A stretch of DNA of 64,000 nt from a virus (lineage: Duplodnaviria; Caudoviricetes). The notes beneath the pieces were generated by a model that saw nothing but the letters and a program-made list of their open reading frames with translations, did not search any database and had not been told where the DNA came from. Shown here in pieces: positions 12,973 through 56,500 of the stretch. Within the stretch, counting starts at the first letter, position 1; each line of letters starts with the position of its first letter. The DNA lies in IMG/VR virus record IMGVR_UViG_3300032270_001615, positions 22,852 through 86,851 of that record, one strand, 5' to 3'. The position numbers and the translations under genes are program-made.

Positions 12973-15383
12973 TCTGGATCCTTAACTGAAATATTGATTG
13001 GATAAGCGCTTCCTAATTCTCGCATTGCAATTTGGCCCTGAGTAGGAACTGTTTTGAACGCATTGTCACGTGGACTGTAAACGTCAATTTGTTCCATCTC
13101 AATAACCTTGTTTCCTCTGTCATTTACATAAATTCTCTTTATACGGAAGTTTCCTTGCGTAACACTCTCCGTACCATTGCCTCCAGAGTAATGAGGACCA
13201 ACAATCTTGAGAATTGCACTTCCTTTGCCTAATTCTCCGCCCATAACAAGGAAGTCCTCGCCTGCAGTTGGAATTCTTATGTCATCAACACGATCCGCAA
13301 CATTTGTAAGTGGAATTGGAATTACGTCTCCAACAGCCATGCCTTCTGGATCTTTTACAAGACGCCATTTTGGTTCTTCGCTGATCTTTGAATCGGCAAC
13401 ACCCTGCATTACACTCACTGCTCTTTCGATAGCAAACTGAATACTCTCTCTGTCGTATTCGTCATACTTAGCAACTTCACCGGTGATAATTGCATCAAAC
13501 TCTGGGTTTACCTCTTTATCCCACTGTCCAAGACGCCAATCGTAGTGCCTAAATTCTGCTGGTGCAATCTGGTAACCAAACAAGAGTGCTGATACCTGTC
13601 TGTTGAACCAAGCATCGCCCTCATGGATAACTGCACCATTAAATGAAGAGGTATCTAAATGCTCCAGTATCGCTTTGGCTGCTTTTTGTCGATAATCCTT
13701 ATCTGCAGGATCGAACTCATCAGTCCACTCAAAAGAGTAATCACCTAAAGTAAAACGATGGACTGTTTCTCCAAACTCATTAGCTCCAACCTGATGCTTT
13801 ACTGGTCTATCCCAATCCATGATCGACATCTCTTTTGGTGCAATTTCAGACCTTGACACAACATCATCTGCTGCACGCTGAGCATTTCTTCTGCTTGAGA
13901 AACCAACGCTTGGCTTTTTGGCTGAAGGAATCAGTGGATCCATAGATGATTCGCTCTTCCATGGTCTTGATTTCGGGTCAACACCTACTACTGCATCAAG
14001 CATCTTCTCCAATTGAGGAGAAAGAAGGGAGCGCAATCTGTCTTTTGGTTCGGTGTATGCAGTAAAGCCTTCGGCCCACATCTCCTGCATGTTCTGCTGT
14101 CCATAGGCTGAGTCAACATAGGGCTGATTGGTATCTGTTGCGAAACGCATATCTCTACCGGAAACTGGTGAGGTGAAGTTGTTGGCAATATCTACTGCAT
14201 TGAATCGATAGTCATAGTCAGCAAACATGTCCATGTCTTCTCTGTCTGCATACAACCCGTCTAGGTGTTTTGCTGCCATATAAGCCAGGTAATGTCCATA
14301 CTCATGCCTGATAGTTCCAGTGGCTGTTCCATCAACAAGCCACTTGCGACCTCTCTCATCAAGCTTGCTTCTGGATTGGAGAGTAATTCTGTCTTTACCT
14401 TTGATGTCCTCAAAGTATGGTCTTGAGAGAAGCATGGTTCCTTGTGATGACCTGAAGTATCCACCAAACCTGTATTCAATTACCTTTCCATCAACGGTCT
14501 TATCTTGAATGCTGAACACTGTGGGTGGGAAACCGAAGTTATCAACTATCCACCTGAATGATGGTGACTCATTGAGTGTTTCCTCAATGTACTTACGTGC
14601 TGCTTCCTTGGCTTCCTCGGAGTAGTCATACAGTACAAGGTGCTTAGCTTCTACTTCTTGCTTGAACTCATCATCTGTTATCTGTCCTGACCTGTACCTA
14701 GCACGCAATGCAAGGGCTTCTGCATTGATCTCGCTGTAACGATCTTCAAGTGTTGCTCTGAATCTCTTCCTTACCTCTTCATACTTAGACCTAGGCTCAT
14801 CAGGATTGCGTATGCTCCATACCTCATAGCTACCTACGTTGTACTCAACCATCATGTCTAGGTGTGCTTCAGGACTGTCAGGTACTGATGCTTCTGCTAT
14901 CTCTCTAGCAGTCATACCCTTGAATCGTTGAGGGTGACCATACTTACCCTTGAACTTATTGACACCCGATGGCCTCTGACGCAACCTTGATGTAATCGGT
15001 ATACGTGCTCTTGTTGTAGTGGTAGCTGTACGTGGCTTCACTGGCTTCACACTGATGACTGGCCTAGGTATGCCATATGGTGGAGCGTTATCTGATCTTG
15101 CTACATCACCCGTAGTCGAACCCGTACGACCTGCGTTAATTGCACTAGGCATAGAACCTAAGGTCGTTACATCTCTAGTGCTAGGGGTAGCAGGCCTTTC
15201 GAATGCAGTACCTTCTTGCACAATGCCATCACCATCACCATCTTGTGCATCAGGATCATATGACTCATTCAATCCACCAAGAGTTAATCCTTTAATGGAT
15301 ACATCATCATCATGATCATTTGATTTGACATGACGAACGCCTCTATCTGTATAGTCATATTCAGGCTGATAAGAGAAAGGCAT
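12969..15383 (-). CDS. large tagged protein: DPDA tag, HExxH metallopeptidase-like, ADP-ribosyltransferase-like
   Basis: YDPDAQDGDGDGIVQEGTAFERP; HEYGH...EMWAEGF; KWRL..GDVIPIPLT..ESVTQG; start placed at ATG 15383 (TACAAT 6 nt upstream). Confidence 0.75.
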   Translation of the reverse strand: MPFSYQPEYDYTDRGVRHVKSNDHDDDVSIKGLTLGGLNESYDPDAQDGDGDGIVQEGTAFERPATPSTRDVTTLGSMPSAINAGRTGSTTGDVARSDNAPPYGIPRPVISVKPVKPRTATTTTRARIPITSRLRQRPSGVNKFKGKYGHPQRFKGMTAREIAEASVPDSPEAHLDMMVEYNVGSYEVWSIRNPDEPRSKYEEVRKRFRATLEDRYSEINAEALALRARYRSGQITDDEFKQEVEAKHLVLYDYSEEAKEAARKYIEETLNESPSFRWIVDNFGFPPTVFSIQDKTVDGKVIEYRFGGYFRSSQGTMLLSRPYFEDIKGKDRITLQSRSKLDERGRKWLVDGTATGTIRHEYGHYLAYMAAKHLDGLYADREDMDMFADYDYRFNAVDIANNFTSPVSGRDMRFATDTNQPYVDSAYGQQNMQEMWAEGFTAYTEPKDRLRSLLSPQLEKMLDAVVGVDPKSRPWKSESSMDPLIPSAKKPSVGFSSRRNAQRAADDVVSRSEIAPKEMSIMDWDRPVKHQVGANEFGETVHRFTLGDYSFEWTDEFDPADKDYRQKAAKAILEHLDTSSFNGAVIHEGDAWFNRQVSALLFGYQIAPAEFRHYDWRLGQWDKEVNPEFDAIITGEVAKYDEYDRESIQFAIERAVSVMQGVADSKISEEPKWRLVKDPEGMAVGDVIPIPLTNVADRVDDIRIPTAGEDFLVMGGELGKGSAILKIVGPHYSGGNGTESVTQGNFRIKRIYVNDRGNKVIEMEQIDVYSPRDNAFKTVPTQGQIAMRELGSAYPINISVKDPE

Positions 15384-15454
15384 GTGACTATTGTATGTCA
15401 ATGCTTATAGGCAGGACGCTAAGTATTCATACACATATGAGGTGTATGCAACGA

Positions 15455-15661
15455 TTATGAGTGTGGAAACTCTATAGTCTTTGATTCATCTGTAAAGGGA
15501 TTATCAGAAGCTGTACTGTTCTTCTTGTTATATGAGTTCTCAATATCACTTAGTTGTTTACGAAGCTTCTTGAGACTATCTAGTACATCTCTACTGTGAT
15601 TTGGATTACTAGATGATCCTCTATGCGAATGAGCATGGCTATCACTGTTTTGATCTGTCAT
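15455..15661 (-). CDS. hypothetical low-complexity protein
   Basis: 68 aa Ser/His/Asn-rich; may be non-coding. Confidence 0.3.
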   Translation of the reverse strand: MTDQNSDSHAHSHRGSSSNPNHSRDVLDSLKKLRKQLSDIENSYNKKNSTASDNPFTDESKTIEFPHS

Positions 15662-15944
15662 ACGAACATACTATGCATCAAGATGTATGGAATATACGAA
15701 CTATGCAATAAGCAATACATGCAGATAAGTACTATGGATTCGACGAAAGACTATGTGTATTGAATGTGCATAGATACACTGCATACATAGCAATACTCAT
15801 CAATAACCTGGTGCAGGGATGGGTACGATCTACCCCCTGGTGCACAAGTGGTGATACGGGACTTCTTGTAAACTTTTCCGCATGGGTGGGTATGCCCGGG
15901 CACGCGTACGAAACTAAATGAGGTTTCTCAATCTTTAGTTTGAT

Positions 15945-16334
15945 TTATCCAACCCAGTCGTCTCTGCCCCAGAACTTTGGGTTTGGGTGGCGGTTTGCAA
16001 ACATGTCTTTGTTTTCCAGGATTGGTGGTATTTCACCTGTTTCTGCGTATTGTCCGAGTATGTCATTTGGGTCTTCTGGTTCTTGCCCTGTATATGTGTT
16101 GATGATTTCTCTTGCAGCATCTCTGAATATCGAGTTAAGGCCGGCTTGTGTTAGTCCGAAGTTTAATGCGATTGATCTGTTTGCAATATGTTGCATGTTG
16201 ATGGTGTTGTTCATGACTGTGCCTTTGTATATGCGCAGTATGAGTGATCCATCCCAGTAGGCATGCCAGACTGATGAGCCGTCTCCGAACTCGTCTAATA
16301 CGTATACCCGTTCGTTTGACTCTTTTGATTGCAT
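15945..16334 (-). CDS. hypothetical protein
   Basis: 129 aa, RBS AGGAG. Confidence 0.65.
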   Translation of the reverse strand: MQSKESNERVYVLDEFGDGSSVWHAYWDGSLILRIYKGTVMNNTINMQHIANRSIALNFGLTQAGLNSIFRDAAREIINTYTGQEPEDPNDILGQYAETGEIPPILENKDMFANRHPNPKFWGRDDWVG

Positions 16335-17301: not shown

Positions 17302-17313
17302 TAACTAAGTTGA

Positions 17314-21104: not shown

Positions 21105-23030
21105 ATGACAATTTTAGATCAAGCATTTGTGGACTCCTATTCCCTAAAGCAGGCTCCATGGGGTTTTAACGGCCTTGGAGAAATAGTTTTTCTTCGTACC
21201 TATAGCCGCAAAAAGGAAAACGGCAACACGGAGACATGGGTGGAAACTCTTCAGCGCGTGATTAACGGTGCTCACGAAGTCGGTGTCGATTACACAAAAG
21301 AAGAAGCCGAGGCGCTTTTTGACCATTGCTTCAATCTCCGCTGCTCGTTCTCTGGTCGTTCATTGTGGCAACTAGGAACGCCTCTTGTTCAGAAGTTCAA
21401 CGCAACGTCTCTGAATAACTGCTACTTCACAAACATTGAAAAGATTGAAGACTTTGAACTTTTGTTTGAGTACTTGATGCTTGGCGGAGGAGTTGGTTTC
21501 TCTGTAGAGCGTTCTAAGATTCACGAACTTCCAAAGGTCAAGACTGGCGTAACAATTACGCACGAACGTAGTAACGACGCAGACATTATTGTCCCTGATT
21601 CACGTCAAGGTTGGAAGCGTCTTCTTCACGCAGTATTAAAGTCGTACTTCGATACGGGCAAATCGTTTAGTTACTCAACTGTTCTCATCCGTGAATACGG
21701 TGCACCGCTAAAGACTTTTGGTGGTACCGCATCGGGCCCTGGAGCACTCATTGACGGGATCGCGGATATTTGCAAAGTGATGCAGAATCGCGAAGGAAAG
21801 AAACTTCGCTCGATAGATGTTCTCGACATTTGTAATATTATCGGTCGAATAGTTGTCTCTGGATCTTCGCGCCGCTCCGCGCAAATCGCGATGGGTGATC
21901 CGGATGACGTTCTGTTCATTCGTGCGAAGAATTGGGCTTCAGGAAACGTTCCAGCATGGCGTGCTAATTCAAACAACTCTATCTACGCGGATTACTACGA
22001 CGAAATCATGCCTGAACTGTGGAAGGGTTATGACGGAACTGGCGAGCCCTACGGCCTTCTCAACCGTCGCCTTGCACGCAAGTTCGGCAGAATTGGCGAA
22101 CCAAAGCCAGACAATTCGATTGAAGGTTTCAATCCATGTGCGGAGATTGCGCTTGCTGATGGGGAGTCTTGCAACTTGGCAACAATCTTTTTGCCAAATG
22201 TTGAGTCTCTTGAGCAGTTTAAGGAAATTTCTCGCTTGCTATACAAGACGCAGAAGCAGATTACTCGCATGGCATACCCTTACGAGAAGACAACAAACAT
22301 TGTCAACAAGAACGCTCGACTTGGTCAGTCTGTCACTGGGATTCTTCAGTGTTCAGAAGAACAGGTTTCTTGGCTTTCACCTGCGTATGAGCATTTGCAA
22401 GAATTTGATAAGCAATACTCAGCAGAGCGTGGATGGCCAGCATCGGTTCGTTTGACAACTGTTCAGCCATCAGGAACGCTTTCCCTTCTCCCAGGAGTAA
22501 CACCAGGTATTCACCCTGCTTACGCTCAGTACTATGTTCGTCGTGTTCGATTTGGTTCATCAGACCCGTTGGTAGAGGCTTGTCGCAAGCGTGGTTACAA
22601 GATTCAGTGGGATATCGGAATTGACGGGAGAGAGGATCACACTCGATACGTAATCGACTTCCCGTGCATGTCTCCAGAGGGATCAACCCTTGCCGCAGAC
22701 ATGACCGCTGTTCAACAGTTGGAACTGGTTGGATCAATGCAGAAACTTTGGGCTGATAACGCCGTTTCGGTAACTGTGTATTACAGAAAAGAAGAGCTTC
22801 CAGCTATTCAAGAGTGGCTATCAGAGAATTACGACAAGAGCGTTAAGTCGGTTTCTTTCCTTCTTCACGTAGACCATAACTTTTCTTTGCCTCCATACGA
22901 AGAGATCACAAAAGCAGAGTACGAAAAAATGCTCGGCAAGATTGATAGTTCGATACCTTTGCAGGAAGTAGTTTTTGGTGGAGAATTAGATCTTGATAAT
23001 TGTGCTACTGGCGCATGTCCAATCAAATGA
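21105..23030 (+). CDS. nrdJ: class II (adenosylcobalamin) ribonucleotide reductase, monomeric RTPR type
   Basis: RTYSR, LNNC, RRSAQI, GFNPCAEI, CNLA, TTVQPSGT, C-terminal C..GACP. Confidence 0.92.
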   Translation: MTILDQAFVDSYSLKQAPWGFNGLGEIVFLRTYSRKKENGNTETWVETLQRVINGAHEVGVDYTKEEAEALFDHCFNLRCSFSGRSLWQLGTPLVQKFNATSLNNCYFTNIEKIEDFELLFEYLMLGGGVGFSVERSKIHELPKVKTGVTITHERSNDADIIVPDSRQGWKRLLHAVLKSYFDTGKSFSYSTVLIREYGAPLKTFGGTASGPGALIDGIADICKVMQNREGKKLRSIDVLDICNIIGRIVVSGSSRRSAQIAMGDPDDVLFIRAKNWASGNVPAWRANSNNSIYADYYDEIMPELWKGYDGTGEPYGLLNRRLARKFGRIGEPKPDNSIEGFNPCAEIALADGESCNLATIFLPNVESLEQFKEISRLLYKTQKQITRMAYPYEKTTNIVNKNARLGQSVTGILQCSEEQVSWLSPAYEHLQEFDKQYSAERGWPASVRLTTVQPSGTLSLLPGVTPGIHPAYAQYYVRRVRFGSSDPLVEACRKRGYKIQWDIGIDGREDHTRYVIDFPCMSPEGSTLAADMTAVQQLELVGSMQKLWADNAVSVTVYYRKEELPAIQEWLSENYDKSVKSVSFLLHVDHNFSLPPYEEITKAEYEKMLGKIDSSIPLQEVVFGGELDLDNCATGACPIK

Positions 23031-27920: not shown

Positions 27921-28418
27921 TTACATGGCATCTACGATTAGATGGACCCTATCTTCGATCCCATCATTTCGTAGGCTATGGAGTCTTCCGACGTTGTCTA
28001 TAACCCATATTTGACCAGGTTTTAGGTTCATGGACTCACGCCCAATGGTGAATATGCATTCCGTATTGGTTATGACCGGTACGTGAATTCTGTGAGTTAC
28101 CCTAGTTACTCGACCCTCGTCCGTATGTTCGGGAATCACTACTCCGGCTTTGAGCCGAGTAAGCATTGCTTGTTGAATTTTTACTTCACCAAAGTGTTCC
28201 CTTGCGGCCAAAACGACTTCATCTACATAGGAACTGAATCTTTCATGGTTTTTGTGCGGTATTGCTGAATCAACCCTCTGTTTTACGTCGTAAAACAAGG
28301 GGATAGTGTCAGTTATCGCCGACGCTGCACCGCGCCTTTTCTTTCTGCCTTCATATTCGGTCCAGTCTTCATCCGTTAACGACAGTACCTCGCCGAGAAG
28401 GTTATCAAATAGAGACAT
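27921..28418 (-). CDS. Asp/Asn beta-hydroxylase-like Fe(II)/2OG oxygenase
   Basis: LTRLKAG..IPEHTD, RIHVPVITN, DN...HS..N...RVHLIVD; RBS AGGAGA. Confidence 0.85.
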   Translation of the reverse strand: MSLFDNLLGEVLSLTDEDWTEYEGRKKRRGAASAITDTIPLFYDVKQRVDSAIPHKNHERFSSYVDEVVLAAREHFGEVKIQQAMLTRLKAGVVIPEHTDEGRVTRVTHRIHVPVITNTECIFTIGRESMNLKPGQIWVIDNVGRLHSLRNDGIEDRVHLIVDAM

Positions 28419-28476
28419 TTCTCCTAAAAACAGAAATGGTTCATTTTCCCTCATACACAATCTTTCCGTATATAGC

Positions 28477-28515
28477 AAAAACCCCGCTCACCCCCGAAGG
28501 AATGAGCGGGGTTTT
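28477..28515 (-). terminator. rho-independent terminator after major capsid gene
   Basis: AAAACCCCGCTCA...TGAGCGGGGTTTT. Confidence 0.8.
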
Positions 28516-28528: not shown

Positions 28529-29860
28529 TTAGTCTTCTGCACCTGGAGCGTTGTCGAAGGTTACTGCGACGAATGACTCTGGACGCTTGACAGCAAGGGC
28601 GAGACGCTGCTCGGCCAAGATGACAATTGCGTTGCGGATAAAGAAGTCTGCATGCTGTTCCGAGATACGGATGCTTGCTTGTTCACGGTCATAGATTTGT
28701 GCTCCTTGACCGAACGAACCGACGAGAGCAGTGCCTTCTGGCATTGCTGGGGTCTCGACGATTGGCAAACGCCATACCTTTGGCTCACCACCGAGAGCAA
28801 CCGAGACGGCAACGAGGTACTGACCGTACTCGTCTTTTGCCAATTCGATGTCTTCCCAATCGTTTGGATGCATTACGACACCAGATGGCTCGTAGTATGC
28901 AAGGAACGAAAGGGTTGCTGCACGACGGATTGCATCAGCCTTGTTGTCTGGAACTGGTGTAAGTGCACCAGACGACCAGTCGTAAGTCTGAATTCCGGCT
29001 GTCTCAAGGATACCTGTCAAGTTCTCACCAGTGCCATCGCCCTGGAGAATTTGATAGTCTTCCTGCAAACGAAGGCCGTACATCAGTTCGTTGTCGATGA
29101 TTGAGCGCAGTTGTGGCTCATCAGCAAGAACGTTTCTGTGTGCTGCTTCCCAGTGAGCAAGAGTCTTCGTCGATGTCTGAACACCTTCGAAGGTCATGCT
29201 TGACTGTGGCTTAACACCAAAGGTTGCTGAAGCTGAACGCTCTGCAACCATTGCTGCGTTACGGGTAAAGCCGCTTACGCGGAAGTACTCGATGATTGCA
29301 GAAGTGGTAGTGCGGGTTGGGAACAAGTCACGAACTCTCTTCGTACGCATTGGAGGTACGATGATTGGATCGCGCTGAACCGAACCGAACTGTGTTGGGA
29401 AGCCGCTTGGCATTGCAGTGTAAATGTCCTTGACGTTGTAACCGCCAGTGAACGATGCTTTTACCTCGAAAGGTGATGGCATGTTTGCACCATTGCGGCC
29501 GCCGTTAAGGGCCTTGAACTCTGCTGAGTCAAGGAACTGCTCACCGATGGTGCGGAGTTCCTTCTGGCTGTAACCGAATGCTGGCTGGCCTGCTGCAGCT
29601 GCTGCAACTTCTGCTGCAACTGAATCATGTGCCTGCTCAGAACCCCAGCTAGCAACCTTTTCGAACGACTCGAGGCCTTCGATCAAGGACTTGATTTCCT
29701 TGATGTCTGACATGTTGCGATCGAATGCTGACTTTTGTTCTGCGTTAACTACGACTGTGCCGTCTTCAACTTTGAATGAATCTGCGATTGCCTTGTTGTC
29801 CGCCATCTTCTGACGAAGCGCACCCTGCAGTTCGTTTACTCTTGATTTGTCTACTGACAT
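28529..29860 (-). CDS. major capsid protein, HK97 fold, with N-terminal delta domain
   Basis: coiled-coil N-terminus; KTLAHW, GDGTGENLTGIL, VMHPNDW, FIRNAIVILAEQRLALAVKRPESF. Confidence 0.95.
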   Translation of the reverse strand: MSVDKSRVNELQGALRQKMADNKAIADSFKVEDGTVVVNAEQKSAFDRNMSDIKEIKSLIEGLESFEKVASWGSEQAHDSVAAEVAAAAAGQPAFGYSQKELRTIGEQFLDSAEFKALNGGRNGANMPSPFEVKASFTGGYNVKDIYTAMPSGFPTQFGSVQRDPIIVPPMRTKRVRDLFPTRTTTSAIIEYFRVSGFTRNAAMVAERSASATFGVKPQSSMTFEGVQTSTKTLAHWEAAHRNVLADEPQLRSIIDNELMYGLRLQEDYQILQGDGTGENLTGILETAGIQTYDWSSGALTPVPDNKADAIRRAATLSFLAYYEPSGVVMHPNDWEDIELAKDEYGQYLVAVSVALGGEPKVWRLPIVETPAMPEGTALVGSFGQGAQIYDREQASIRISEQHADFFIRNAIVILAEQRLALAVKRPESFVAVTFDNAPGAED

Positions 29861-29998: not shown

Positions 29999-32158
29999 TT
30001 ATTGGTTTTTAGAAAATCTTCTCTGCCAGTAACTAAGGTTTTCTTTTCCGGATCTACCAAGTCCGCCTTCTGCCCACTGTATAAACTTGTCTTCATCGTA
30101 GAATTTTGCAACACCACCAATTACTTCTACGATTTTTTTAGGGTCAGAACCTTTAGGGACATCAGTATTCCAAAGGGTAAATTCATCTAACGTTCCGTCA
30201 TTAAGGTAACCATTTACAAGGCCGTATGTAGATGAGTGAACATTGGTCGTAATCTCTTCGGCTATAGATCTTCCATCTTCAGCTCTTCTTGCACGAAGCC
30301 TCTGTATTGCGGTATCCGTTGGAGTGAAAGCCCAGTGTCCAATGTTGCTGTATCCACGGTCGCGTATAGACCGGTAGTAGCGCATGCGCTGACCAGTTCC
30401 TTCTGTGATTATGTCCATTCCACCGCTTACAGCATCGTCGACAACCCTTGTGGCCGAGTTTGCTGATTCATAGTGAACAGCACCAGCACCACGACCACCA
30501 GCGTATCCAACCAAGCCTTGCTTGATGAAGTCTGGGTCTACGTGAGCAGCTTCGTCGTTTTTTGGAATCAGTCCTCTTTTTTGCAAGTAGTCAACAAGTG
30601 TTGATTTACCCATTCCTGGAGCTCCGGCTATTGCGAAATGACGCTTGTCTCCACTCTTCTTATTTCTGAATTGAGGTTTAACTCTATCCAGGATTATCTT
30701 GCCCATTTCCTTGCCGCCAACATTTGGTTTTCCAACATACCTTTCAGAACGCATTCCTCTTGTAGACCTTGAGCCACGACCTTTTCCTGGACCGTAATTA
30801 TTGTAGAAGCGCTCTAATTTCTTGTAATCTTTATCAGTAAGGCTTTCTTTGTCTTTCTTGTGTTTATCCACAATTGGACGAAGTGCATTGAAGCTTGGGT
30901 TTGCATACGCCCAATCCAAATGAGCCTTTCTTTTCATTCTCTTCAAGTGATCCTTCATTGGATCTTCGCCTCCAGTTGTTGAAGGCATTCCTGGTGCTTG
31001 AGGTTTCGCTACTGCAGGTGTTTGAATACGTGCACGTGGCGTTGCTGGTCTTTCAAATGGGGTTCCTTCTTGGACAACCATGTCTCCGTCAGCATCTATT
31101 GCGTTTGGGTCAAACCTTGCATTCACGTTGTTGAGTATTCTTCTGCCAAGGCTCTTCGAACCAATTTTTACGCAACCATTACTCATTTTTCCGTGACGAT
31201 TTCTCCTTTTACCGGTTGGAGCATATCCAGGCTCACAAGGGTTTATGAAATCCGGAAGTTTGTTAAAACTTCTTGTTGATTCAATAAATGATTCGTTATC
31301 TGACATCGAACCAGATTCATCAGACTTGTACTTTCCTTTTACTGCGTCTTCCATTGCTTGTCTGATGCTGTTTTGATCATTCTTTGGGCCACGCTTTGTG
31401 CCTTTTTTCTTCTTGCCGTTCATGTCAACACCAGTGGCTGTTGTTCCACCAAGAATAGCTTCTTTCACCAATGGGATAAACCCGTTGATTTCTTCAAACA
31501 AAGATTTTTTTCTTCTTAGTTTTGTCAGATCATCTCGGACGACTGTTCTTATTCTTCTGGTAAGAGCCTCTTGCTGATGTCTTCTTCCAAGTGCAGTTGT
31601 TCCGCTCAGTCTTGAATAGTCCGTCATGTTGGTGCATGGCATCCAAACGGTTCTTCCTGTTTTGGAAACTCTCCTGCTTACACCGATACAGCCAAGCTGT
31701 CTTGAGCGTGCTCTTGCAGACTCAATATCGCTAAAAACGTCAACGTCGTTGTCTCTTGGTGAAAATGGGTTTACTCCCTTTTCTTCAATTGACTCATAAG
31801 CAGCTTTCCCCATAGAAGAAGATTGCACACCACTTCCGACCCCAGAAGGAGTTGTGATTCTTGTTAATCCACCATCTTGTGATGTTTCAATTCCGTAGAC
31901 TCCTCTTTGTCCAAGACGAAGCCATTCTTTCTTCTTTTTCTTTCCTTTTATGGTTCTTGATTTTTGCCAGTCTTCAACTTCCGACAAAGCCGTTTTTCTT
32001 CTTGTTGGTTCAGCTGCATTCGAGATTCTGTCCAGCTCTTCTGGGGAGGCGCAGGGATTCCACTTTCCGTTTTTGTCTTGGTGTGCTCCAGAACAGCCGA
32101 TAATCTCAGCCATTCTTATTGCTCCAAGCTTCCCAGTGAGTGAAGGGTCTTTTTCCAT
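29999..32158 (-). CDS. tagged modular protein with C-terminal zeta-toxin-like P-loop kinase
   Basis: GAPGMGKST, VDPDFIK, HYES, ITEGT; DPNA tag; Cys-pair micro-motifs. Confidence 0.75.
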   Translation of the reverse strand: MEKDPSLTGKLGAIRMAEIIGCSGAHQDKNGKWNPCASPEELDRISNAAEPTRRKTALSEVEDWQKSRTIKGKKKKKEWLRLGQRGVYGIETSQDGGLTRITTPSGVGSGVQSSSMGKAAYESIEEKGVNPFSPRDNDVDVFSDIESARARSRQLGCIGVSRRVSKTGRTVWMPCTNMTDYSRLSGTTALGRRHQQEALTRRIRTVVRDDLTKLRRKKSLFEEINGFIPLVKEAILGGTTATGVDMNGKKKKGTKRGPKNDQNSIRQAMEDAVKGKYKSDESGSMSDNESFIESTRSFNKLPDFINPCEPGYAPTGKRRNRHGKMSNGCVKIGSKSLGRRILNNVNARFDPNAIDADGDMVVQEGTPFERPATPRARIQTPAVAKPQAPGMPSTTGGEDPMKDHLKRMKRKAHLDWAYANPSFNALRPIVDKHKKDKESLTDKDYKKLERFYNNYGPGKGRGSRSTRGMRSERYVGKPNVGGKEMGKIILDRVKPQFRNKKSGDKRHFAIAGAPGMGKSTLVDYLQKRGLIPKNDEAAHVDPDFIKQGLVGYAGGRGAGAVHYESANSATRVVDDAVSGGMDIITEGTGQRMRYYRSIRDRGYSNIGHWAFTPTDTAIQRLRARRAEDGRSIAEEITTNVHSSTYGLVNGYLNDGTLDEFTLWNTDVPKGSDPKKIVEVIGGVAKFYDEDKFIQWAEGGLGRSGKENLSYWQRRFSKNQ

Positions 32159-35500: not shown

Positions 35501-36908
35501 ACATGGTGAATTCTTGGGCTACACGCCTATATGTTTCAGCTGGATTTTCATTTGGCTTTTTAGTAAACGAATCGTACACTGCCTGAAGAGTGCTCTCTTC
35601 GAATTCCCTTCGAGGAAGCATTTCCCCGTTTGGACCACGTTGTCCTGGAAATCTTGCAAGTGTTGGCCCGCTTGAGGTTCTTGTGGATTTTGGTTTTGAT
35701 CCACCGACAGCAGCTCTCACCGCATTGGCTTGTCTATTGACCCTCTGCGACTGCATGCCTCGCGCTGGTTTTTTCTTTCTAGATACAACCGGCATGTCAG
35801 AAGGTACTGTGCCTTTGACATAATCAATAAGGTCAGTAAGTCTTCTGTCCCCGGCCAGCGATCCATTATTGAATTCGTCTTGCAAGTTTGATATTAGGTC
35901 GTTTTGCTCATTTCTTGTAAGTGAAGAAATGCTGTCTTTAGCCTTTTTTAGCAAAGGTGTGATTGCATCATTTGCACCATCTGCCTGTTCCAGTAAATCG
36001 TCAATGACTCCTTCTGGGTCTGTGTTCTTTATTGGTTTTGCATTATCTCTTGCTGAAGCCATTCCAGTAGCGCCTTGCGAGGCATTGTTTACGACACGCT
36101 TAACCGGCTTTGGGCTCGTATCAGGTCGCTCAAATGGAGTGCCTTCTTGAATTATCTTGTCAAGGTCGGCATCTATTGCATCTGGATCAAATCTTGCATT
36201 TGTTGCACGCAGCGTTCTTCTTCCTAGACGAGCTGCACCGCTGCCGAGCTTTGGTCCAATATCTTTTTTGCTCATTCCATCAAAAAATGAAGCTCCAACA
36301 GATTTTCTCTGAATTGGAAGAACCAACTTTTCTCTTGAGTCAACAATCAAATTTCCAAGTCTTCTTTCGAATCCGTTAGACATTTTTTCGCGCAACTCAG
36401 AATGAAATACGCTTCTCTCAATTCCTTTAGACTTGGAGTTAAAGCGATTGGTGTCTATATCAAATGCATGTTTCTGCGACTTGAATTCAGTAATAAAAGA
36501 AGAAAGTTTTTGATCGTTCTTGAATGCAAGTGCTTTGAAGTTTATTGATCTTGTCTTTTGCTGACCCTGCCCAAGTATCGGGGAATCGCTTACATTGATA
36601 AAATCTTTTTCAATATCGTGCTTTACTGATTTGGTTTTTACATTGAACTGGCTTGTGCTCTTTAGGTCTGCCTCGCTAATCCCGAGCGTTTGCGCTAGAT
36701 CCCTGTTTGGTATCTCAAATTCAGTTCCAGAAACACCAAATGGAAGGGAGAAGTCGTCCTGAGACTTTGCTTCACTGTTGGCCCATTTGGCCCACTCTCC
36801 AGAACTCTCATTAACGCCAAAATAGGTAATCGATTTTCCTGACTTGACTGCATAGCCGTATACTTCGCCGCCGATTTCGTCTTTAAGGATTGATACAAGC
36901 TTCATCAT
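32544..36908 (-). CDS. 1454-aa tagged modular protein (HTH, PARP-like ART, HipA/PI3K-like kinase)
   Basis: DPDA tag; SLEDMAKILGMTRSEVRQAE; IVRGTG...GFGEYFT; YVK..ENEVLA..WLGNWD..N..IDAGG. Confidence 0.75.
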   Translation of the reverse strand: MMKLVSILKDEIGGEVYGYAVKSGKSITYFGVNESSGEWAKWANSEAKSQDDFSLPFGVSGTEFEIPNRDLAQTLGISEADLKSTSQFNVKTKSVKHDIEKDFINVSDSPILGQGQQKTRSINFKALAFKNDQKLSSFITEFKSQKHAFDIDTNRFNSKSKGIERSVFHSELREKMSNGFERRLGNLIVDSREKLVLPIQRKSVGASFFDGMSKKDIGPKLGSGAARLGRRTLRATNARFDPDAIDADLDKIIQEGTPFERPDTSPKPVKRVVNNASQGATGMASARDNAKPIKNTDPEGVIDDLLEQADGANDAITPLLKKAKDSISSLTRNEQNDLISNLQDEFNNGSLAGDRRLTDLIDYVKGTVPSDMPVVSRKKKPARGMQSQRVNRQANAVRAAVGGSKPKSTRTSSGPTLARFPGQRGPNGEMLPRREFEESTLQAVYDSFTKKPNENPAETYRRVAQEFTMSMYDVEAHINEMHKGSRLRLPFAIRPEYLGITPSEASAVPKPMQKLSDEQIYAARMTGVISLEDMAKILGMTRSEVRQAEQRHMRTLPKTPEITSTEARGMPSRRRSGSTMPGRARRLESSIARVQTVPNAKPEKGKKAVFGAGSKKVGPNDGRFVEGLAPNDKDKAAKAMQELETELTNTLKGGKKKPTKRNPNPSDSEFGTSYFAAWWRGQMRGAEKQTRRGGTFAPRNHDDKLTTSDITEMRLVLDAEIAAGRIDTVAIDKDGKPKVDKDGNPLLSPAEKAQRMLDDMQTLIEMRDSNSYEMVEHLHTESQKKVAEAVTGKTKMRGSEIKKLGLGEESSFWGRARGLDTGLSALTDEDKKLADTRQRFLRVNPERKRKRELKAARKSATRNRRGRQLTETSPELAIEQKKLRFMAAKRELAARLRRNRSASKLEEKVKGNKSDNHKMVTRNADGTFTVNPRFTSALAFVSREYAKDAGLGREAQRRQAISNLWENTGFSNEPVLISKDEVQDLIDAGWTPIVRGTGNEKVKGEAYVEQFLTNPDRFVPGQGGQVHGFGEYFTDKPESWNGYRGGRDDRHTILALIPPSATVVDKQTLKNEQQAMHKITETMMTAIQEMGGKDGASQLTSGEIAAALRKGLAETHSSRSGTASYSIADSIISQLEEMDRSGKDSVKAKADAIEAISFLNKAAGTDEEGRFAPIIGVSLERSHSNVILLHDRSSIAAVHVPLEDEVAQKLAKGERKATKASKAQKKAQGVVDVTSWTKTGGQRGSNAGGTYRDGNGVEHYVKQPNSQIQAENEVLASRLYNLAGVKTPEINLGDENGSPRVVSKIMTDISPASSSQNDAIADTFVTHAWLGNWDALLNNNTQVDSSGNPVTIDAGGAILFRANAGRKGTGGSTAFGDVAGEMDTLRDPSVNPTAARVFGKLTPDQIKTQVARLRLITSDQIRKTVDTMISDMVERKKIADTLIARQQDIINRFG

Positions 36909-39915: not shown

Positions 39916-42900
39916 TTATCTATCTTTCGGAAGATCAGCTGAACCAAGGTTTAGTTCTGCCCCTGGCTCATACCAGGATAACAGCTTTTTAAGAACTTCA
40001 ATTTCTCGCTTATTCAACTTCCGGGAAAGTATGGTTCCTGAAGAATCTCTTTCTGCTGAATAGAGAGAGAGCCTCAAGGCGGCTATCACCGCTAATTCAG
40101 AGAACAATTCCACCCTGTTTTCTCCCCATTCAGATCGCAGCCACTCTGCAATTGGGAAGTTTGTAAGGGTGGACATATAAGAAGCCTGAGGGGAGCCGCC
40201 TCCGTATTTGGCGATATTCTCCGCAATACGTATTTCTTCAGGTGTTAGGTCATCGTACGTGTGTCTACCTATTGCGGTGAGCGTGAATATCAAGCCAGCA
40301 TTTTTGCTTGTTGAATAATCCTGCCTATCTCCAGAAATTGAGATTATTGCTCTGGTTAGCGCTTGGTCAATGAGTTGAGCGGCAGCATTTGGGCTTGCGT
40401 CAAGCGGGTTTGGTACCTGCGTACCCGAGAATGTGTCGCTTATGGACAGCGAATCAAATAGATTGTTGACTCTCTCAAGCATGCTTTCGCTTGCCGCAAA
40501 TGGGTCAGGATGCCCAATCTGGTTTACCAGTCCAAGCCTCCTAATTGCCTCAACCATCTTCGCTCGTGTTTCAACGGAAGCAACATCAGAAATGAAAGAG
40601 AAATTGTTCTGAATCGCCATGTTTAGCAAGGAAAGATCTTCTCTCATTTTATTAAACTCAGGAGAGCCTTGATGCATGAACGAATTGACACCTACTTCTG
40701 GGTCAAATGAACCGTCCTTGAATACTCTTCTATTACCGTAGACCATTCCAAGTGCCACAAAGTCCAAAAGATCTCTTACCTTCATCGCGGAGCCAACTGG
40801 AGTTCTTGGGACTATTCCTTGATCCAGAGCATCGGCCATGTCCCTTGAGGAAATTGACTGATTTCTTAGGAGCTCAAGAGTTCTGAACATTTCTCTGCTC
40901 ATTGGTATTTCTTTACCGTTTTTGTCTAAAACGCTTTCTTTGAGTCTGTCTTGAGATTTGGACATAATCGCGTTCATGACTGAGTCCAGTGCTTGAAGCT
41001 GTGATTGTGCAGCGGCAACAAGTGCAAGGTCTCCGTTCGCTGCAGCTACTCTCGCAGCCTCTTTTATGTCCTCTTGTGTTATTTCGTAATAAGAAATAAG
41101 CCAACTTACAGGATTTATGTCAGGACCGGTAACTGGGTCAACCTGAAAAGATCCGTGCATTCCTGCCATTAAGTCGCTCAAGGTTCTTGCTGACTGCCTA
41201 TCCAGTAGTCCTTCAGCTATCTTCCTTTCAACGTTTTTTGAACCAGCACCATGGGCTAAGTGCCACGTGTAAAATGGGAACAGTTCGGGACCAGAATACT
41301 TTAATAATTTTTCTAAGTCTTTTTCTCCTGTGAAAAATGACCCACTTAATTCAGTTTGAATTTTAGTGAATTCATCCTGCAAAGCCCTAACAACATCCCT
41401 GTCTGATGGTCCTGCGGAGACAATGTCGGTTATTTCGCGCAACCTATCGTGCATTGCTTGATATTTTTTGACGTGTGCATCACGGGCTTTTGTTGCAGCT
41501 TTAATGGCGTCTTGGTAGGCCTTTTCCTGATGAGCAGCGTGACCGGTCTCGTGGATCATCACCGCGCGCATCATGGCTAGTTTTGCTTCTTCGACTCTTT
41601 CGTCTAAATCTTTTGGGTTTTGAGCAACAAGATTTGACATGCTTTTTTCAAAGAGCTCTCTCAATGTTTCGTATTCTTTTTGCAACTGCTCGGTGACCGT
41701 GTCGTTTATTTCTGCGGATTTTCTTCGATCAATCTGGTCTGCTAGTTCCGTGAACTTTTTGTAGTCCGGATCGTCCGATTGCTCAAAAAGATAGGCAGCG
41801 GCAACCCTGAGACTGGTCAGGTCGTATGCCGCAGAGTCAAACGTGCCCTGCTGGTACCTTCCGCCATTTCTAATTCTTCCACCGCGAACCCTGGCTGCTT
41901 TACTCATTTCATCTGCATACCGGATTGTGTGTCTTGCTGATCTTGTTCTTCTATCATCCATTCGCTGTGTGTTCGGATCAACGGCTGGAGGCCTTTCGCT
42001 TATCTCAAAAATCTTCCTTCCGCTGGCACCAAAAATTGGCGGCCTCATGCTCTGCGATCCTTGAGCGGTTTCGTTTATGTCTGATTTTTGGAAACTAATT
42101 TCAGCTTCTTTTAAGTGTGGTGCAACACGGAGTCCGTGTGCAATTCCGAGAAACAATGCGGATTCGTATGGTGAAAGATTGTCCGTGTCGTTCTTATTAT
42201 CCAAAAAGTCAATATTCGCTTTTGGTGCGATTTGTGAAAGAACCTTCTTGGCGTCTCCAACCGAAGATATTTTTTTGCCATCGTTATAAAGATTGTTTAT
42301 TTTGTCTTCTTGTTTTTTGAATTCGGCATCTATGACTGCACTGGACCTATCAATCCATCTTGTCTTTTTTCTAGAATCTCCAGCCGGATCAAAAAAATGA
42401 AATCTAGAAGAAAACGCTCTCGCTATTGAGCCTATTGACTGTCTTTTATTATTTTTTTTTTGACTTTCTAAAATGTCATTGCCAGATGATGCGTTTGTAG
42501 ATGGGACGTCTGGGACCTTGCCTGGGGCCGCTGGTCTTGCGAACTGCGTTCCTTCTTGAACAAAACCGTCCATATCAGCGTCAACCGCATCTGGATCAAA
42601 AGTCGCTCCTGCCCTGAATCCACGTATTCTGCCGGTTGCTCTTTCTGCACCGTCACCAATTCTTTGCCCCAGCTTCCTGAACACGCTTTTTTCGTCAGGA
42701 GTAGAAAGTGATGTTTTGAAATCTATGGCTCGGTTAGTTGTTTTTTCTATTTTTAATCTTCTATTAAAGATGTCGTTTCTTATTACGACGCCCTTGAGTA
42801 GTGATTCGTCAACTGAAAATCTTTTAGCAACAAAACAGCTGTGCCAATAGGCCTTATCCTGGCCGACACCCTCGCTCCACAGGGTTTCATGGAACTTCGT

Positions 42901-51942: not shown

Positions 51943-53376
51943 TTATTCTTGTTCGTCGACTTCGGCGGCAAGAAGTTCAAACTCAAGCAACGATGCGATG
52001 AAATCATCAGATTCAAGTGACTTTGATTCGCCATCTTGTCCTCCTGCGACCCATGACGTTGGAATAAGTGATTCAGCGCCAAGAGCCTGTGCGCGCTTCA
52101 TGATATGCAGTTTAGCTGCTTTCTTATCACTCGCGCGACCATATGCTTGAATTGCATTTTCCAAGTCAGCTTTTGTTGCAATTGGGAAAGAACCGTCTGG
52201 AAGAGCAGTTCCTTCTTTTGCCATTGCGTTTCTCATGTCCTCGCTGAAAGCTCTTTTAAGTGCAATCTCAGCTGCTTCTGCTTCGATATCTTCTGCTTCT
52301 TCTGGCTCGTAAACGTCGTAACCCATTACTTCGCCATCAAGCGAAACAAAAACGTCGTAAGACTTTCCATTGATGCCTTCAATTTCTACTGCGTAAGTAT
52401 CAAAACCTTCAAACACATCTGGCTCAACAGCAACCACGTTTCCTTCAATTGACTTGACAGCAATTTCTGCTGCTTCAGACATGTCGATCACCATCATGTT
52501 TTCAAAAGCAGACTTCTGTTCAAATGAGTCACTGTCTAGCTTGTGCCAGCCGAGAACTTCTGCTGTGGTTCCGTCAACGAACATCTCAACTGCTCTTCCG
52601 TCTTTAACTTGTACGTCAACAACGAACATGTCAGCGTCAGATGAGTAACCAGAGTCAATGACCTTGCCGTCGAACATGTCTTCGGCAATTCCTTCTACGT
52701 GGAGAAGTCCTGGCATTCCCTTTTCTGCCATGCAACCGCCTGGACAGTCATCGCAAACAGATGACCCACCAGGGTAAACCTTGCGATCAATTCCGCATAG
52801 GTAAGCTGTCTTACCAACTGCAGCAAGATCCATGCCCATGCTTGCGAGTCTTCTTTTGCGCATTTTTTCCATGTCTGAAGTAGGCATCATTCCTTCTTCT
52901 TCCTCTTCATCCTCTTCGGGCATTTCTTCTTCGCCCTCTTTCATGCGAAGCGCTCTTCTGGCAGCGCCCATTCCCCAGCCTTTTTCCATTTCGTCTTCTT
53001 CTACCGCCATAGGCTTTCGCGGCTTTACGATGCCCTCTTCTTCTTCTTCGTCTTCTTCGTATTCCATTTCGGAACCGTCAGTAGCGTCTCCCTTTGTGTA
53101 TCCCATCTCGTCTACAGACATCTTCTTCTTTTTCTTCTTTAATGGCTTTTGATTTTCGTCGACACCGTAGCTGTTTTCTGGCATGCCGTCGGTCAGGTTG
53201 CCCATCATCTCTTGTTCAAGCGGCGAACCCTTTATCTGCACAGGCATCGCTCCGCACTTGCCACAAACTTTTGCACCTGCTTCAAAGCCGCACTCACTAG
53301 AGCCAAGACCCTTTGCGCATTTGGTGACATTTCCGTCACTGTCAATCTTGACAACTGCTTTTTCGTCGTAACTCAT
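51943..53376 (-). CDS. acidic head-assembly / scaffold-like protein with two PepSY-like repeats
   Basis: Cys clusters, poly-E tracts, A.EIAVKSIEG.VV.VE..Y.VEI; ALPDGSFPI..DLENAIQAYGRA. Confidence 0.6.
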   Translation of the reverse strand: MSYDEKAVVKIDSDGNVTKCAKGLGSSECGFEAGAKVCGKCGAMPVQIKGSPLEQEMMGNLTDGMPENSYGVDENQKPLKKKKKKMSVDEMGYTKGDATDGSEMEYEEDEEEEEGIVKPRKPMAVEEDEMEKGWGMGAARRALRMKEGEEEMPEEDEEEEEGMMPTSDMEKMRKRRLASMGMDLAAVGKTAYLCGIDRKVYPGGSSVCDDCPGGCMAEKGMPGLLHVEGIAEDMFDGKVIDSGYSSDADMFVVDVQVKDGRAVEMFVDGTTAEVLGWHKLDSDSFEQKSAFENMMVIDMSEAAEIAVKSIEGNVVAVEPDVFEGFDTYAVEIEGINGKSYDVFVSLDGEVMGYDVYEPEEAEDIEAEAAEIALKRAFSEDMRNAMAKEGTALPDGSFPIATKADLENAIQAYGRASDKKAAKLHIMKRAQALGAESLIPTSWVAGGQDGESKSLESDDFIASLLEFELLAAEVDEQE

Positions 53377-53519: not shown

Positions 53520-56500
53520 TTAATTTTTATTTCTTGATGAAACAGGTTCGGTTGTTTTGTCTATGAAGGTTGACATTGCTGCTTGCGCCATCTTGTCCAT
53601 TAGTTGTGCAAATATTTCCGCACGTGAACCACCAGTTTCCACTTGTCTGTCTACAACAGCCATTACTGCTTCAAGTATTTTGTCTGTCTCTTCTTGTGTG
53701 GTTAGCAACACTCCAGCGTTTGTTCTTCTGGATCCAGTCTTTCCTGACTCTTGACGCTTCATGATTGTTTGAAGCAGAGAAAGAGAGTCTGCGGTCTTTC
53801 TGTCCCCGGCTTTTTGAGCTTCGGTTATTTCTTTTGGCAATGAATCTTCTATTTGCTTGAACCAAGTTGCTTCTGCGTTTATTTGAGTTCTTCCTGCTTT
53901 TTCGCCATCTGCGCTTCTACTGGAAGCAAACCCTCTGGCCATCTTCTTGCGTTTTGATGAGTCAAGGTATGACTGGGCCAATTTTCTCTTTGAATCAAAA
54001 CCTTCAACTGGTGGCCTTGGAGCGTTTGATTCACCTCGTACAAGAGAGGCACCTATTGCTGATGGACCTAAATCATCTACTTCTGGGTCTTCTGATGATG
54101 CAAGTCTCGATGCGTCTACTGCGTCAAGTTCACCCCTTGATCCCCTGTCTATAAATTTGTCTTTTGCGTAGAAACCGTCAAGGGCTGCGAGTCTTCCGTC
54201 CAGTATTTCGATACCGCGTTGCACGTTTCTATCTGCCGGAGTCATGTTTCTCGTGTCCATTGTGGAGGAGTGCTTTTCAATTGCGTCCCTCATCTCCGTT
54301 ATTCCATCAAGAGTAAGGTCGTCTTCAAGCGTTATTGAAAGGGCGTCAATCAATTTCGCATGATCTTTCTTGTTGCCACGTGAATTTCGCTCGTTCAATT
54401 TCTCAATATAAGAAATTGCGTTCTGAAGGGACTCAACGTCGTTGGCTCGCATCTCTGCAGCCTCTTGTTCGGTTTTTGGAACATCCCTACTCAAGCGTTT
54501 GACGACTTTTCCAGGCTTTTCTTCCGTCTGTGGAGTCTGTCTTTCCGTGCGAGGTTTTTTAGGCAAAGATGATCTGCGTTTTTGCTTTTCTTTTGCTTCC
54601 TCAAGTGCTGTTTGTTCGTCGAAAACTCTTTGCATTTGTGCAACCCAGACCTCGCGATTCATTCCGCTATTTTCTGGTTTTAGATCAGTTGCAAGTCTTT
54701 CTTCTTTTTCGTAAGGATCTAGTGAGTCCCAGTTTTTAGGTTTTATCTCAAAGAAACTCTTACCGGTATCGGTTGTTGATCCAACTGTCCTTGAAGGCAT
54801 TCCTCTACCGGAGCCAGGACTGTGAAGAGCCTGTATTTCTTCTTCGCTAAATCCGAGATCTCGCAAACGCTTAAAACGATTTTCTTCAAGACGCTTCAAC
54901 ATCTCTTTGGCTGGAGTTGCGTCGATCTGACCTTTGTCGTCACGAACAACCATTCCTGGTCTACCTTGAGCTCCAGAAGCTATTTTTGGTGTGCGAGGAG
55001 TTGCCGGACGCTCAAACGCCGTACCCTCTTGAACTAATTTGTCACCATCTGCGTCTATCGCATCTGGATCAAATCTGCCGGTGAGTACGCGACCGGCACG
55101 CCTAGCTTTTCCCGGGCCACCGCCCCCGATTGAGCCGCCTAATGATTTAAACGCCGTGTCAATTGCATCAGTGAATCCGTCAGGAAGTCCTGAGGTGATT
55201 ACGATCCCATCCTCTGCGACATAAGTTTCAACTCTGTAGTAATCCAAGATTGGATCAATTGCCTGCTTGACGCGGAAAGCATCTTTTGTGTCCACCGGGA
55301 TTAAGTGCTCTTCGGTTTTTTCTTGCATTTCTTTTTCTGCAGATGAAAGAACTTCCTGAAGTGACTCAACGGCAGATCTAAGTTTTGAAAGATTTCTAGA
55401 GCTAAGAACTCGTCCTGCTTTGTATTCAATCTCTCCACCAAGGAGTTCATCTAGCGTCTCTAGCTCAATGTCGTCTGACTTGCGACGCTTCTTTGCTCTT
55501 CTGAAAACACCACCCAGAATGTTATCCCAGATTGCCTTTTCATCAGCACCACCCTCGACCAAGCCTGATTGTTCGCCGTCGTCAAATTCTTCTTCGTCTT
55601 CGACATCTGAGGAGTAAGCCTGTTCCGTGACGGAGGCTTTAATTCCAGGACGATTCATATCCATAGCTGGAACATACATCGTCTGCTTGATAACTCTTTC
55701 TGGTCTGGAGAACATGAATACTCGTCCGCCATCAGGTGTATGGTATCCAACCCTGAAGAACGAGCTCTCTCCGTCACTTGTCATTCTTTCAAACAAAACC
55801 ATATTGTCGGTGGCTTTGATAATCCTGACTCTTGATCCAGTCCTCTTCATCAGTTCAACAAGAAGTTTTGCTTTTCTGGAATCTTCTGCCGAAGTGGCGA
55901 CTCCCTCTGCAAACAGATTTGTGTCTTGCGCGTCATCGTCTTGATTATAGGTAGAAGGAATTCCTGCAACTATGGATGTTCTTCTCATATCCATTATCGG
56001 CATGTGATTTTTTTCTTCGCTCTTTACAGAAATTGTTCCAGTCAACTGATTTGCGCCGTGCAGAACAGGGCTAACTTCGTAAAGCTCAACTTCCTTGAGG
56101 ATATTTGCCTTCATGTTTTGATCATAAACAGCGTCAAGAGTTTTGTAGCCGATCGACCACTCTTGTTCAACACCAAAAAACGCTACGTTGGCAAATGCTT
56201 CTTTTCCTTTTTCTGATTGCAGATTAAACTGCACTCTTGCATAGAGTCCGCCAATTCCAGCAGCCTTCATTTTCTGAGGAAGACGTGGATCGCTTGCTGG
56301 AACTTCGTACATTTCAAGAACTTTGCCAATTGGCTCATTCCAGTTGTGGCCCCAAACCACTCGTGGCTTACGGCGCAGCAGACTCTTTGAGAATGCTCCA
56401 GATATAACTACGTCGCCAACAGAGTCCTTATTGCCAATTCCGGCAACGAAACACTCAACAATTCCTTCGGCTTGGTCTACGTTTATCTGACCAGCGTTAC

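Follow-up and report, generated by a model that had tools for sequence, protein, structure and literature searches.

A peptide tag shared by unrelated proteins of an uncultured phage lineage, a candidate address for loading cargo into the head

Introduction

The internal proteins IPI–III and the Alt protein of phage T4 carry a capsid-targeting sequence (CTS) that is removed by the gp21 prohead protease (PMC3012670, PMC9958956). The element described here, a peptide tag of about 26 residues, is found once in each of five otherwise unrelated proteins, named A–E, that are encoded in a stretch of 64,000 nucleotides (the window; positions 22,852 to 86,851 of IMG/VR virus record IMGVR_UViG_3300032270_001615, Duplodnaviria; Caudoviricetes). 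Like the CTS the tag is a short peptide common to unrelated proteins, one of them an ADP-ribosyltransferase, and lies beside a site of the prohead-protease type, and in contigs with a T4-type S77 protease it stands beside LxE-like motifs; delivery to the host is presumed here. The CTS is however about 10 residues long, strictly N-terminal and unfolded, whereas the tag covers 26–70 residues with a DxDxD loop and a hairpin, has no sequence similarity to the CTS, can be N-terminal, internal or C-terminal, is repeated in polyproteins and occurs mainly together with an HK97-type S78 protease. Four of the window proteins have it internally and in A its first residue is number 48, and it is preceded by K-[SG] and not followed by LxE.

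In phage HK97 the C-terminal region of gp4, outside the catalytic domain, is reported (Duda, Oh and Hendrix, 2013) to bring the protease, and also foreign proteins, into the procapsid. Both systems have an S78 protease that must enter the procapsid of a delta-domain capsid protein, but in HK97 the signal belongs to the tail of the protease alone and no other protein has it. The untagged protease of the related Gordonia phage GMA6 keeps a C-terminal module (DGSFPI), whereas in the window phage and the related loci examined this module is on a separate protein, g477, and most proteases carry the tag instead.

Polyvalent proteins are giant polypeptides that combine two to 15 conflict-related domains, among them kinases, ARTs and nucleases; their genes lie close to those for portal and terminase, and they are predicted to be packaged, processed by a peptidase and delivered early (PMC5512222). 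The tag carriers, taken as a family, resemble them in having several conflict-type domains (kinases, ADP-ribosyltransferase, NUDIX, RNase_T), in the window the portal and TerL genes are adjacent, and an untagged neighbour of 2809 residues has an HExxH motif, like the zincin domains of polyvalent proteins. In contrast, no common address tag was described for that group (PMC5512222), and processing is here ascribed to a prohead serine protease. No Pfam match to zincin-like MPTase, LPD, MuF or DarB-type helicase-methylase domains was found in the tagged proteins, and none of the 14 families in 40 diverse carriers is an LPD. MuF polymorphic toxins of temperate phages join a head-associated N-terminal trafficking part to variable C-terminal toxin domains (PMC5576092), and a conserved head-associated part joined to variable toxin-like domains is seen here too, but the MuF domain is portal-associated, about 250 residues long and found in prophages with immunity genes, whereas the tag has 26–70 residues and belongs to phages nearly absent from bacterial genomes. 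Encapsulin cargo-loading peptides are short and attach a variety of enzymes to the lumenal side of a shell with the HK97 fold. They differ from the tag, for which docking is a proposal, in sequence and in being usually C-terminal, and they involve neither proteolysis nor DNA.

Our reading, which we hold at even chances, is that the tag is a capsid-loading address located beside prohead-protease cut sites at the unit boundaries of injected cargo. On this reading its function would be comparable to that of the T4 CTS, of the protease tail of HK97 and of the encapsulin peptides, but it lies outside all of those families.

Results and discussion

The tag in proteins A–E

The consensus is [FY]DP[DN]AxDxDxDxx[VI][VI]QEGTxFxRP, and the five copies are each located in a different long open reading frame (ORF) with one tag per ORF (Table 1). 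All ORFs and tags are on the minus strand, and the five peptides that an earlier note, made from the window sequence, had placed here are all present and readable on that strand, the plus-strand translation being meaningless. There is no sixth copy in the whole 86,851-bp contig. The pattern D.D.D..[VIL]QEGT occurs five times compared with a mean of 0.0 in 100 shuffles, and 13 of 45 columns are invariant in the alignment of the five window copies. Any two copies share 16–22 of 26 residues, 7–15 of which are encoded by different codons, and their nucleotide identity is only 62–72%; the peptide and not a DNA repeat is therefore under selection, as the note had suggested. When the tag and its flanks were masked no pair of parts of A–E was similar at a BLASTP E-value of 0.01 or lower, which confirms that the carriers are otherwise unrelated, and an apparent similarity between the N-terminal parts of C and D disappeared with the masking. 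A Pro-rich linker said to follow the tag is weaker than claimed, with just 4–11% Pro across the next 45 residues.

Distribution and genomic context

A 45-column profile of the tag matched 763 cluster representatives (clustered at 50% identity) at E≤1e-3, and 116 at E≤1e-10, among 1.84 billion proteins, and the best 150 of the 763 range from 96 to 4637 residues in length. In IMG/VR there were 192 matches to the form of the tag found in the window and 185 to a variant form. Cellular genomes gave only two loci, both in bins of metagenome-assembled genomes, in a search of one genome each of 185,579 prokaryote species with patterns that would miss a Trp variant. The tag is thus essentially phage-only and not a generic calcium-binding repeat of cellular proteins, which the note had named as the finding that would speak against its proposal. 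Pfam and NCBIfam have no model matching it even at an E-value of 10, the profile found just chance DPNAxDxDG strings in designed ankyrins among PDB sequences, nothing usable for the tag region came from the ESM Atlas, and the full-text literature searched had no exact match to the tag strings. A tblastn search of 50,697 phage records with the 45-residue window form and a 32-residue variant gave nothing at E 10, which is a weak negative as the queries are short and low-complexity masking was on, and a word-based protein search with the tag region returned solely close orthologues of the protease.

The visible neighbours of tagged ORFs are homologues of the window portal (50–58% identity), protease, g477, 2809-residue protein and capsid protein (60–80%), and most carriers therefore belong to one broad uncultured phage lineage with a common head module. 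The tag is mainly found in this module, between the protease and the major capsid gene; tagged ORFs are nearly always co-oriented, often with two to four in a 20-kb locus, and in 31 of 38 distinct relatives there is a tag in the protease ORF, at around residues 420–670.

Candidate cleavage sites and unit boundaries

The five K-[SG] sites noted upstream of the tags are present 10–37 residues before them (Table 1). For the analysis of positions we used 185 tags, from 150 representatives and the window. Among the 162 internal tags 85% have a K-[SAG] 8–30 residues upstream, compared with 22% of random control positions in the same proteins, and the site has the conserved context [ILV]-[ED]-[ETV]-K-[AGS]-[LI]-G-R-R-[IL]. 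The other 23 tags start within 22 residues of Met1. In polyproteins with two tags the native start (e.g. MAPRLRQEPY) resembles the sequence that follows the internal K (AAKLKLEPY) in length and character. In a related phage that was seen in three samples (loci L071, L077 and L078; L078:7370-7420) the protease frame stops as ...ETEKKV on a run of eight A, identical in the three samples, and the -1 frame goes on as K-SLRGRAQSFDPNA... with tag and cargo, so that a gene boundary or a programmed frameshift would be located exactly at the K; the run could reflect either programmed -1 frameshifting, transcriptional slippage or a homopolymer assembly error. Taken together, the enrichment of K sites, the N-terminal tags, the starts of the polyproteins and the boundary at the A run indicate that K-[AGS], a basic stretch and the tag form the head of an independent unit. 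Maturation of HK97 gp5 takes place at K103-S104 (SLGS...), which makes K-S plausible as a site for an S78 protease. The portal protein has SEK-ALG near its N-terminus (residue 18) and g477 has AK-GLG at residue 22, both of which share the pattern K-[AG]-L-G with the sites that precede tags; six such strings were counted and about five are expected by chance.

For a second motif, [RA]-G-[MF]-x-S-x-[RK], there are 12 instances of the strict form G[MF]xSx[RK] spread over A, B, C, E and the 2809-residue protein, compared with about 0.3 expected. It is confined to some of the related lineages and is probably a module junction or a protease site. In B and C it lies 16–17 residues downstream of the tag, and cut sites may therefore flank the tag on both sides in this sub-lineage.

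The tight coupling of the tag to an upstream K-[AGS], which is replaced by an LxE-like upstream motif in the S77 contigs, could also be understood if the tag were an exosite that binds the prohead protease itself and steers cutting some 10–30 residues upstream, and since S77 and S78 proteases have a common fold one exosite could serve both. We regard this as very unlikely, as the tags close to Met1 mostly have nothing upstream to cut, the putative G[MF]xSxR junctions lie far from any tag, with five of them in the untagged 2809-residue protein, and a tag on the protease would mean self-binding.

Fused domains and shuffling of units

Pfam domains were surveyed in 40 diverse tag carriers, and effector-like enzymes were found. 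Zeta_toxin was the most frequent (six carriers), followed by NUDIX, Peptidase_S78 and DUF3721 (three each) and DUF6321, DUF3626 and AAA_33 (two each), while PI3_PI4_kinase, RNase_T, DUF7178, HipA_2, ADPrib_exo_Tox, DUF5824 and Sigma70_r4 were found once each. Further carriers have PG_binding_1 or DUF7936, and one (P0044) has HipA_2 and PI3_PI4_kinase in the same protein. The bulk of the carrier length is without annotation. By comparison with polyvalent proteins (PMC5512222) and T4 Alt, this is the repertoire that is expected of proteins delivered to a host.

Orthologues of each of A–E were found elsewhere with their parts recombined. In relatives the protease and tag are joined to other, much longer cargo, the tag and kinase half of B also stands alone, and one protein of 2363 residues holds pieces of both C and E. 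The arrangement suggests that the tag heads shuffled units bearing effector-like enzymes.

C-terminal tags, and contigs with a T4-type protease

In five contigs (G001–G005), each with one tag, the tag constitutes the C-terminal approximately 35 residues of small proteins of 147–230 residues. Small proteins tagged in this way are found at loci L137, L144, L146, L148, L150 and L152, and include one family with DUF7936 and some members with VEEP-type repeats. A prohead protease of the T4 type (S77) is encoded in the two longest of the five contigs (120 and 138 kb; 56–64% complete). Of six sequences inspected, five have LEE or LPE before the tag, a small sample that gives a lead only. The cleavage rule of T4 gp21 is L-x-E; the LEE or LPE before a C-terminal tag fits this rule and would mirror the order CTS-LxE-cargo.

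A tag at or near the terminus of a unit, C-terminal in these small proteins, N-terminal in 54 of 180 representative tags and after a candidate cut site in most others, is also what would be seen if it served exit and not loading, by positioning or threading the processed cargo at the portal or tail channel so that it leaves first. The flanks of the tag are predicted to be disordered, and portal and tail channel are built on homologous lines in the two phage lineages, so that the presence of one tag in both could be accounted for. Such a leader is nevertheless unlikely: a folded beta-domain, predicted with high confidence for the extended form of the tag (below), would be odd as a threading leader, and there are 12 portal sites for at least five cargo types, some of them probably multi-copy.

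Predicted fold and the acidic loop

An AlphaFold2 model of a 74-residue segment of E, made with 75 homologous segments, shows the acidic loop together with a helix of basic character and a hairpin formed by LVQ / FER, with a predicted local distance difference test score (pLDDT) of 70–80 over the tag and disordered flanks. An extended variant, EPYDPDAxDADGDGIVQEGTAWERP with a second DG hairpin, was modelled as a compact beta domain with pLDDT of about 95 over about 60 residues. Positions 11–94 of the extended-type profile align to E 486–558, where a second hairpin-like element follows the core tag (Table 1). The extended domain has no usable structural neighbours, the best Foldseek hits having E-values of 0.73 in PDB and 0.27 in BFVD, and a wide VIA-align search gave a best Z of 3.3 (MCU N-terminal domain).

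DxDxDG loops that bind calcium, e.g. in Excalibur and dockerin, are said to have been described by Rigden and Galperin in 2004. The tag is alike in that D-x-[DN]-x-[DN]-G followed by a hydrophobic and an acidic residue is found in 153 of the 185 tags, but unlike in having no Excalibur, EF-hand or PDB match. None of the 185 tags matches the EF-hand pattern PS00018, position 12 being Thr where the pattern has Asp or Glu, and the best match to Excalibur (PF05901) has an E-value of 0.39 and 11.6 bits against a cut-off of 22, for one extended-type sequence only; Excalibur has a conserved Cys pair and the tag has no Cys. V and E follow the loop in all cases. The likeness to a calcium loop drawn in the note holds in the strict form for the copies in A and D and not for the other three window copies, where K or M replaces the Gly. 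Binding of Ca2+ by the loop is plausible.

The frequency of this loop, the conservation of loop and hairpin residues in every lineage, the folding of the tag on its own in the models and its presence in two unrelated head systems beside any neighbouring domain could all be accounted for by a metal-binding mini-domain of structural function only, that is, a cap, spacer or folding nucleus at module boundaries that is stabilised by Ca2+ or Mg2+ and has no specific receptor. It would leave unexplained why there is one copy per unit at unit starts, why 31 of 38 proteases are fused to the tag and why it is almost totally restricted to phages, and the absence of the Gly from three of five window copies is also against it. 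We consider it improbable.

The head module and the carrier proteins

The genes of the minus strand come in the order portal, E, g477, the 2809-residue protein, D, small ORFs and a protein of 682 residues, C, B, the major capsid protein and an Asp/Asn hydroxylase, and the divergent TerL gene (58905-60209) adjoins the portal gene. Tail genes were not recognised among the ORFs scanned, all of them inside the window. The nearest cultured relatives are actinophages, i.e. Brevibacterium phage Cantare and Gordonia phages GMA6, DalanDe and others, with identities of 45–47% for the capsid, about 41–43% for the portal and 36–40% for the protease. Near-identical proteins of close relatives are found on contigs of 148–156 kb, and the record analysed here is therefore a genome fragment, probably about 55–60% of the phage genome.

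Protein E consists of the S78 domain, a conserved region (residues 190–470), the tag and about 490 residues without assigned function. It matches PF04586 with 45.4 bits (Pfam cut-off 21) and phrog_80 with an E-value of 4e-29, and is 36–40% identical to annotated actinophage proteases. Residues 1–200 of B, a part without the tag, have two matches to DUF3721 (motif of the type CSGAH...W..C), a family seen also in three of the 40 other carriers. Protein A is located apart from the head module, among replication genes and adjoining a DUF6321 gene (12472-12972). No Pfam match of any kind was found for A, C, D or the 2809-residue protein. The last of these, which gave no family match, has the HExxH string VSHEVGHH near residue 590 and a K-SLG site at residue 162 without a tag, and parts of it show a weak similarity to A (23% over 350 residues) and to tagged proteins of other phages.

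The acidic g477 protein has a Cys-rich N-terminus, a hypervariable low-complexity acidic and Pro linker, a conserved middle domain that matches PepSY weakly and below the threshold, and a conserved C-terminal module (DGSFPI...AIQAYGRA...KRAxALG). This module and the C-terminal end of the GMA6 protease (L079 15534-17036), which is untagged, have 57% identity. A profile of g477 found nothing among PDB sequences. In the window phage and the related loci examined the DGSFPI module is always on g477-like proteins and never on the protease. On one reading an ancestral head-binding part of the protease split off as g477, and most proteases now enter by means of the tag; g477 would then be the first-choice candidate for a partner of the tag. 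A complementary rule, by which every protease without a tag would keep a DGSFPI module and vice versa, was rejected, as seven untagged proteases of the lineage have neither, and the pattern of protease and g477 is therefore not clean.

The Asp/Asn beta-hydroxylase-family gene (PF05118) directly after the capsid gene, and the alternating D/N positions beside a loop of the calcium type in the tag, recall the hydroxylated calcium-binding EGF domains, and the tag could by this analogy be a substrate of the phage enzyme. However, the gene is located beside the capsid gene in just 6 of 34 related loci and was not found in five tag-bearing contigs, all of which are incomplete and two of which have the T4-type S77 protease, and we give this idea next to no probability.

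Table 1. Features of the window discussed in the text (nucleotide positions refer to the window; aa, residue of the protein).
Feature	Position	Strand	Remarks
Tag copy in A	15183..15260	-	aa 48-73
Tag copy in B	31037..31114	-	aa 349-374
Tag copy in C	36114..36191	-	aa 240-265
Tag copy in D	42523..42600	-	aa 157-182
Tag copy in E	54996..55073	-	aa 486-511, sequence FDPDAIDADGDKLVQEGTAFERPATP
Extended tag domain in E	54855..55073	-	aa 486-558; second hairpin-like element MVVRDDKGQIDATP after core tag
Candidate cut site K37-G38 of A (SIK-GLTLGG)	15288..15293	-	10 residues before tag
Candidate cut site K335-S336 of B (GSK-SLGRR)	31151..31156	-	13 residues before tag
Candidate cut site K202-S203 of C (QRK-SVG)	36300..36305	-	37 residues before tag
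Candidate cut site K127-S128 of D (DEK-SV)	42685..42690	-	29 residues before tag
Candidate cut site K461-S462 of E (AFK-SLGG)	55143..55148	-	24 residues before tag
G[MF]xSx[RK] sites	A aa 500; B aa 468; C aa 282, 384, 569; E aa 843, 866	-	
G[MF]xSx[RK] sites in 2809-aa protein	aa 801, 1154, 1846, 2010, 2254	-	
Looser second-motif sites	B aa 390; E aa 576		GMPS in B, GMPSRT in E
Portal protein	56632..58653	-	Phage_portal family match
Protein E, 1002 aa	53520..56528	-	HK97-type prohead serine protease, Peptidase_S78 aa 20-173
g477, 477-aa acidic protein	51943..53376	-	Candidate scaffold or adaptor
Giant untagged protein, 2809 aa	43478..51907	-	HExxH motif, five G[MF]xSxR junction motifs
Protein D, 1050 aa	39916..43068	-	Tagged; no family match
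Protein C, 1454 aa	32544..36908	-	Tagged; no Pfam or PHROG match
Protein B, 719 aa	29999..32158	-	DUF3721 near N-terminus, tag, Zeta-toxin/AAA_33-type P-loop kinase domain aa 503-642
Major capsid protein	28529..29860	-	HK97 fold, Phage_capsid aa 163-435, delta-like N-terminal region
Asp/Asn beta-hydroxylase-family gene (PF05118)	27921..28478	-	Directly after capsid gene
Protein A, 810 aa	12969..15401	-	Tag near N-terminus

A proposed role for the tag

If the tag is an address for loading into the head, it would be a small autonomously folding module in which a helix of basic residues is combined with the acidic DxDxD(G) loop and a beta-hairpin, and would mark the start of each cargo unit bound for the head interior. 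Late in infection the tagged proteins and polyproteins, and the protease fused ahead of one such unit, would be carried into the assembling procapsid, where the tag would bind an internal component of the head, the best candidates being the acidic g477 or, on the capsid protein, its inner face or its delta region. The S78 protease would then cut at the K-[AGS] just upstream of each tag, and in this sub-lineage probably also at the G[MF]xSxR junctions. Cutting would release the protease domain and separate the units, and the enzyme domains (kinases, NUDIX, ADP-ribosyltransferase and others) would remain in the head and be delivered with the DNA. What the analysis shows is the tag itself, how well it is conserved, its confinement to phages, the rules for its placement and the variety of domains joined to it, whereas docking, cutting, packaging, injection and the binding of metal are inferred.

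The earlier note had suggested a docking tag for the procapsid interior or scaffold. This proposal gains from the restriction to phages, the location in the head module, the tagged proteases, the effector-like domains and the K-[AGS] sites, and it is weakened by the S77 contigs and by the untagged proteases. Several observations weigh against our reading, and these two are among them. The tag is present in heads of both the S78/HK97 type and the S77/T4 type, whose capsid and scaffold sequences would be unrelated, so that a single conserved receptor patch is unlikely. Seven of the 38 distinct protease ORFs are untagged, and entry of the protease into the head therefore does not require the tag. 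The largest protein of the head module (2809 residues) is also untagged, and A and the small tagged proteins of the S77 contigs are encoded outside head gene clusters. GMA6 and Cantare have no tag in a direct profile scan despite the same portal-...-protease-capsid layout; their large genes between portal and protease include one annotated as an ADP-ribosyltransferase toxin. A conserved K-[AS] at the boundary between the delta region and the N-arm of the capsid protein was considered and rejected, with FEVK-AS here and QLG-AS or VLN-AS in the orthologues, and the capsid therefore gives no support for the specificity of the protease. The K-[AGS] may perhaps not be cut at all and simply belong to the domain, and the 13 near-invariant residues would be expected no less of a fold that binds metal by itself than of an interface for docking.

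More speculatively, and with clearly less confidence than the loading address itself, the tag may be a portable "load into head" code of a large uncultured lineage, probably with aquatic Actinobacteria as hosts, that was borrowed by phages with a T4-type protease and is bound, possibly in a Ca2+-dependent manner, by g477 as heir of the ancestral capsid-binding module of the protease. Cut site, address and cargo would then form a plug-in grammar with which these phages shuffle and inject whole sets of enzymes.

Significance

Proteins that are carried in the head and injected decide the first minutes of an infection, in host take-over and counter-defence, and in uncultured phages this head cargo can hardly be recognised at all. 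With a conserved tag it could be traced directly in sequences, and if the portable code proposed above is real, sequence data would suffice to list the effectors that uncultured phages deliver from the virion, and the tag could serve to package foreign proteins. It is a candidate tag for bringing such proteins into HK97-type capsids. One peptide apparently serves two systems of head assembly whose shell and scaffold sequences are unrelated. The tag would also show a modular evolution of the cargo, in which units are swapped at the tag boundaries.

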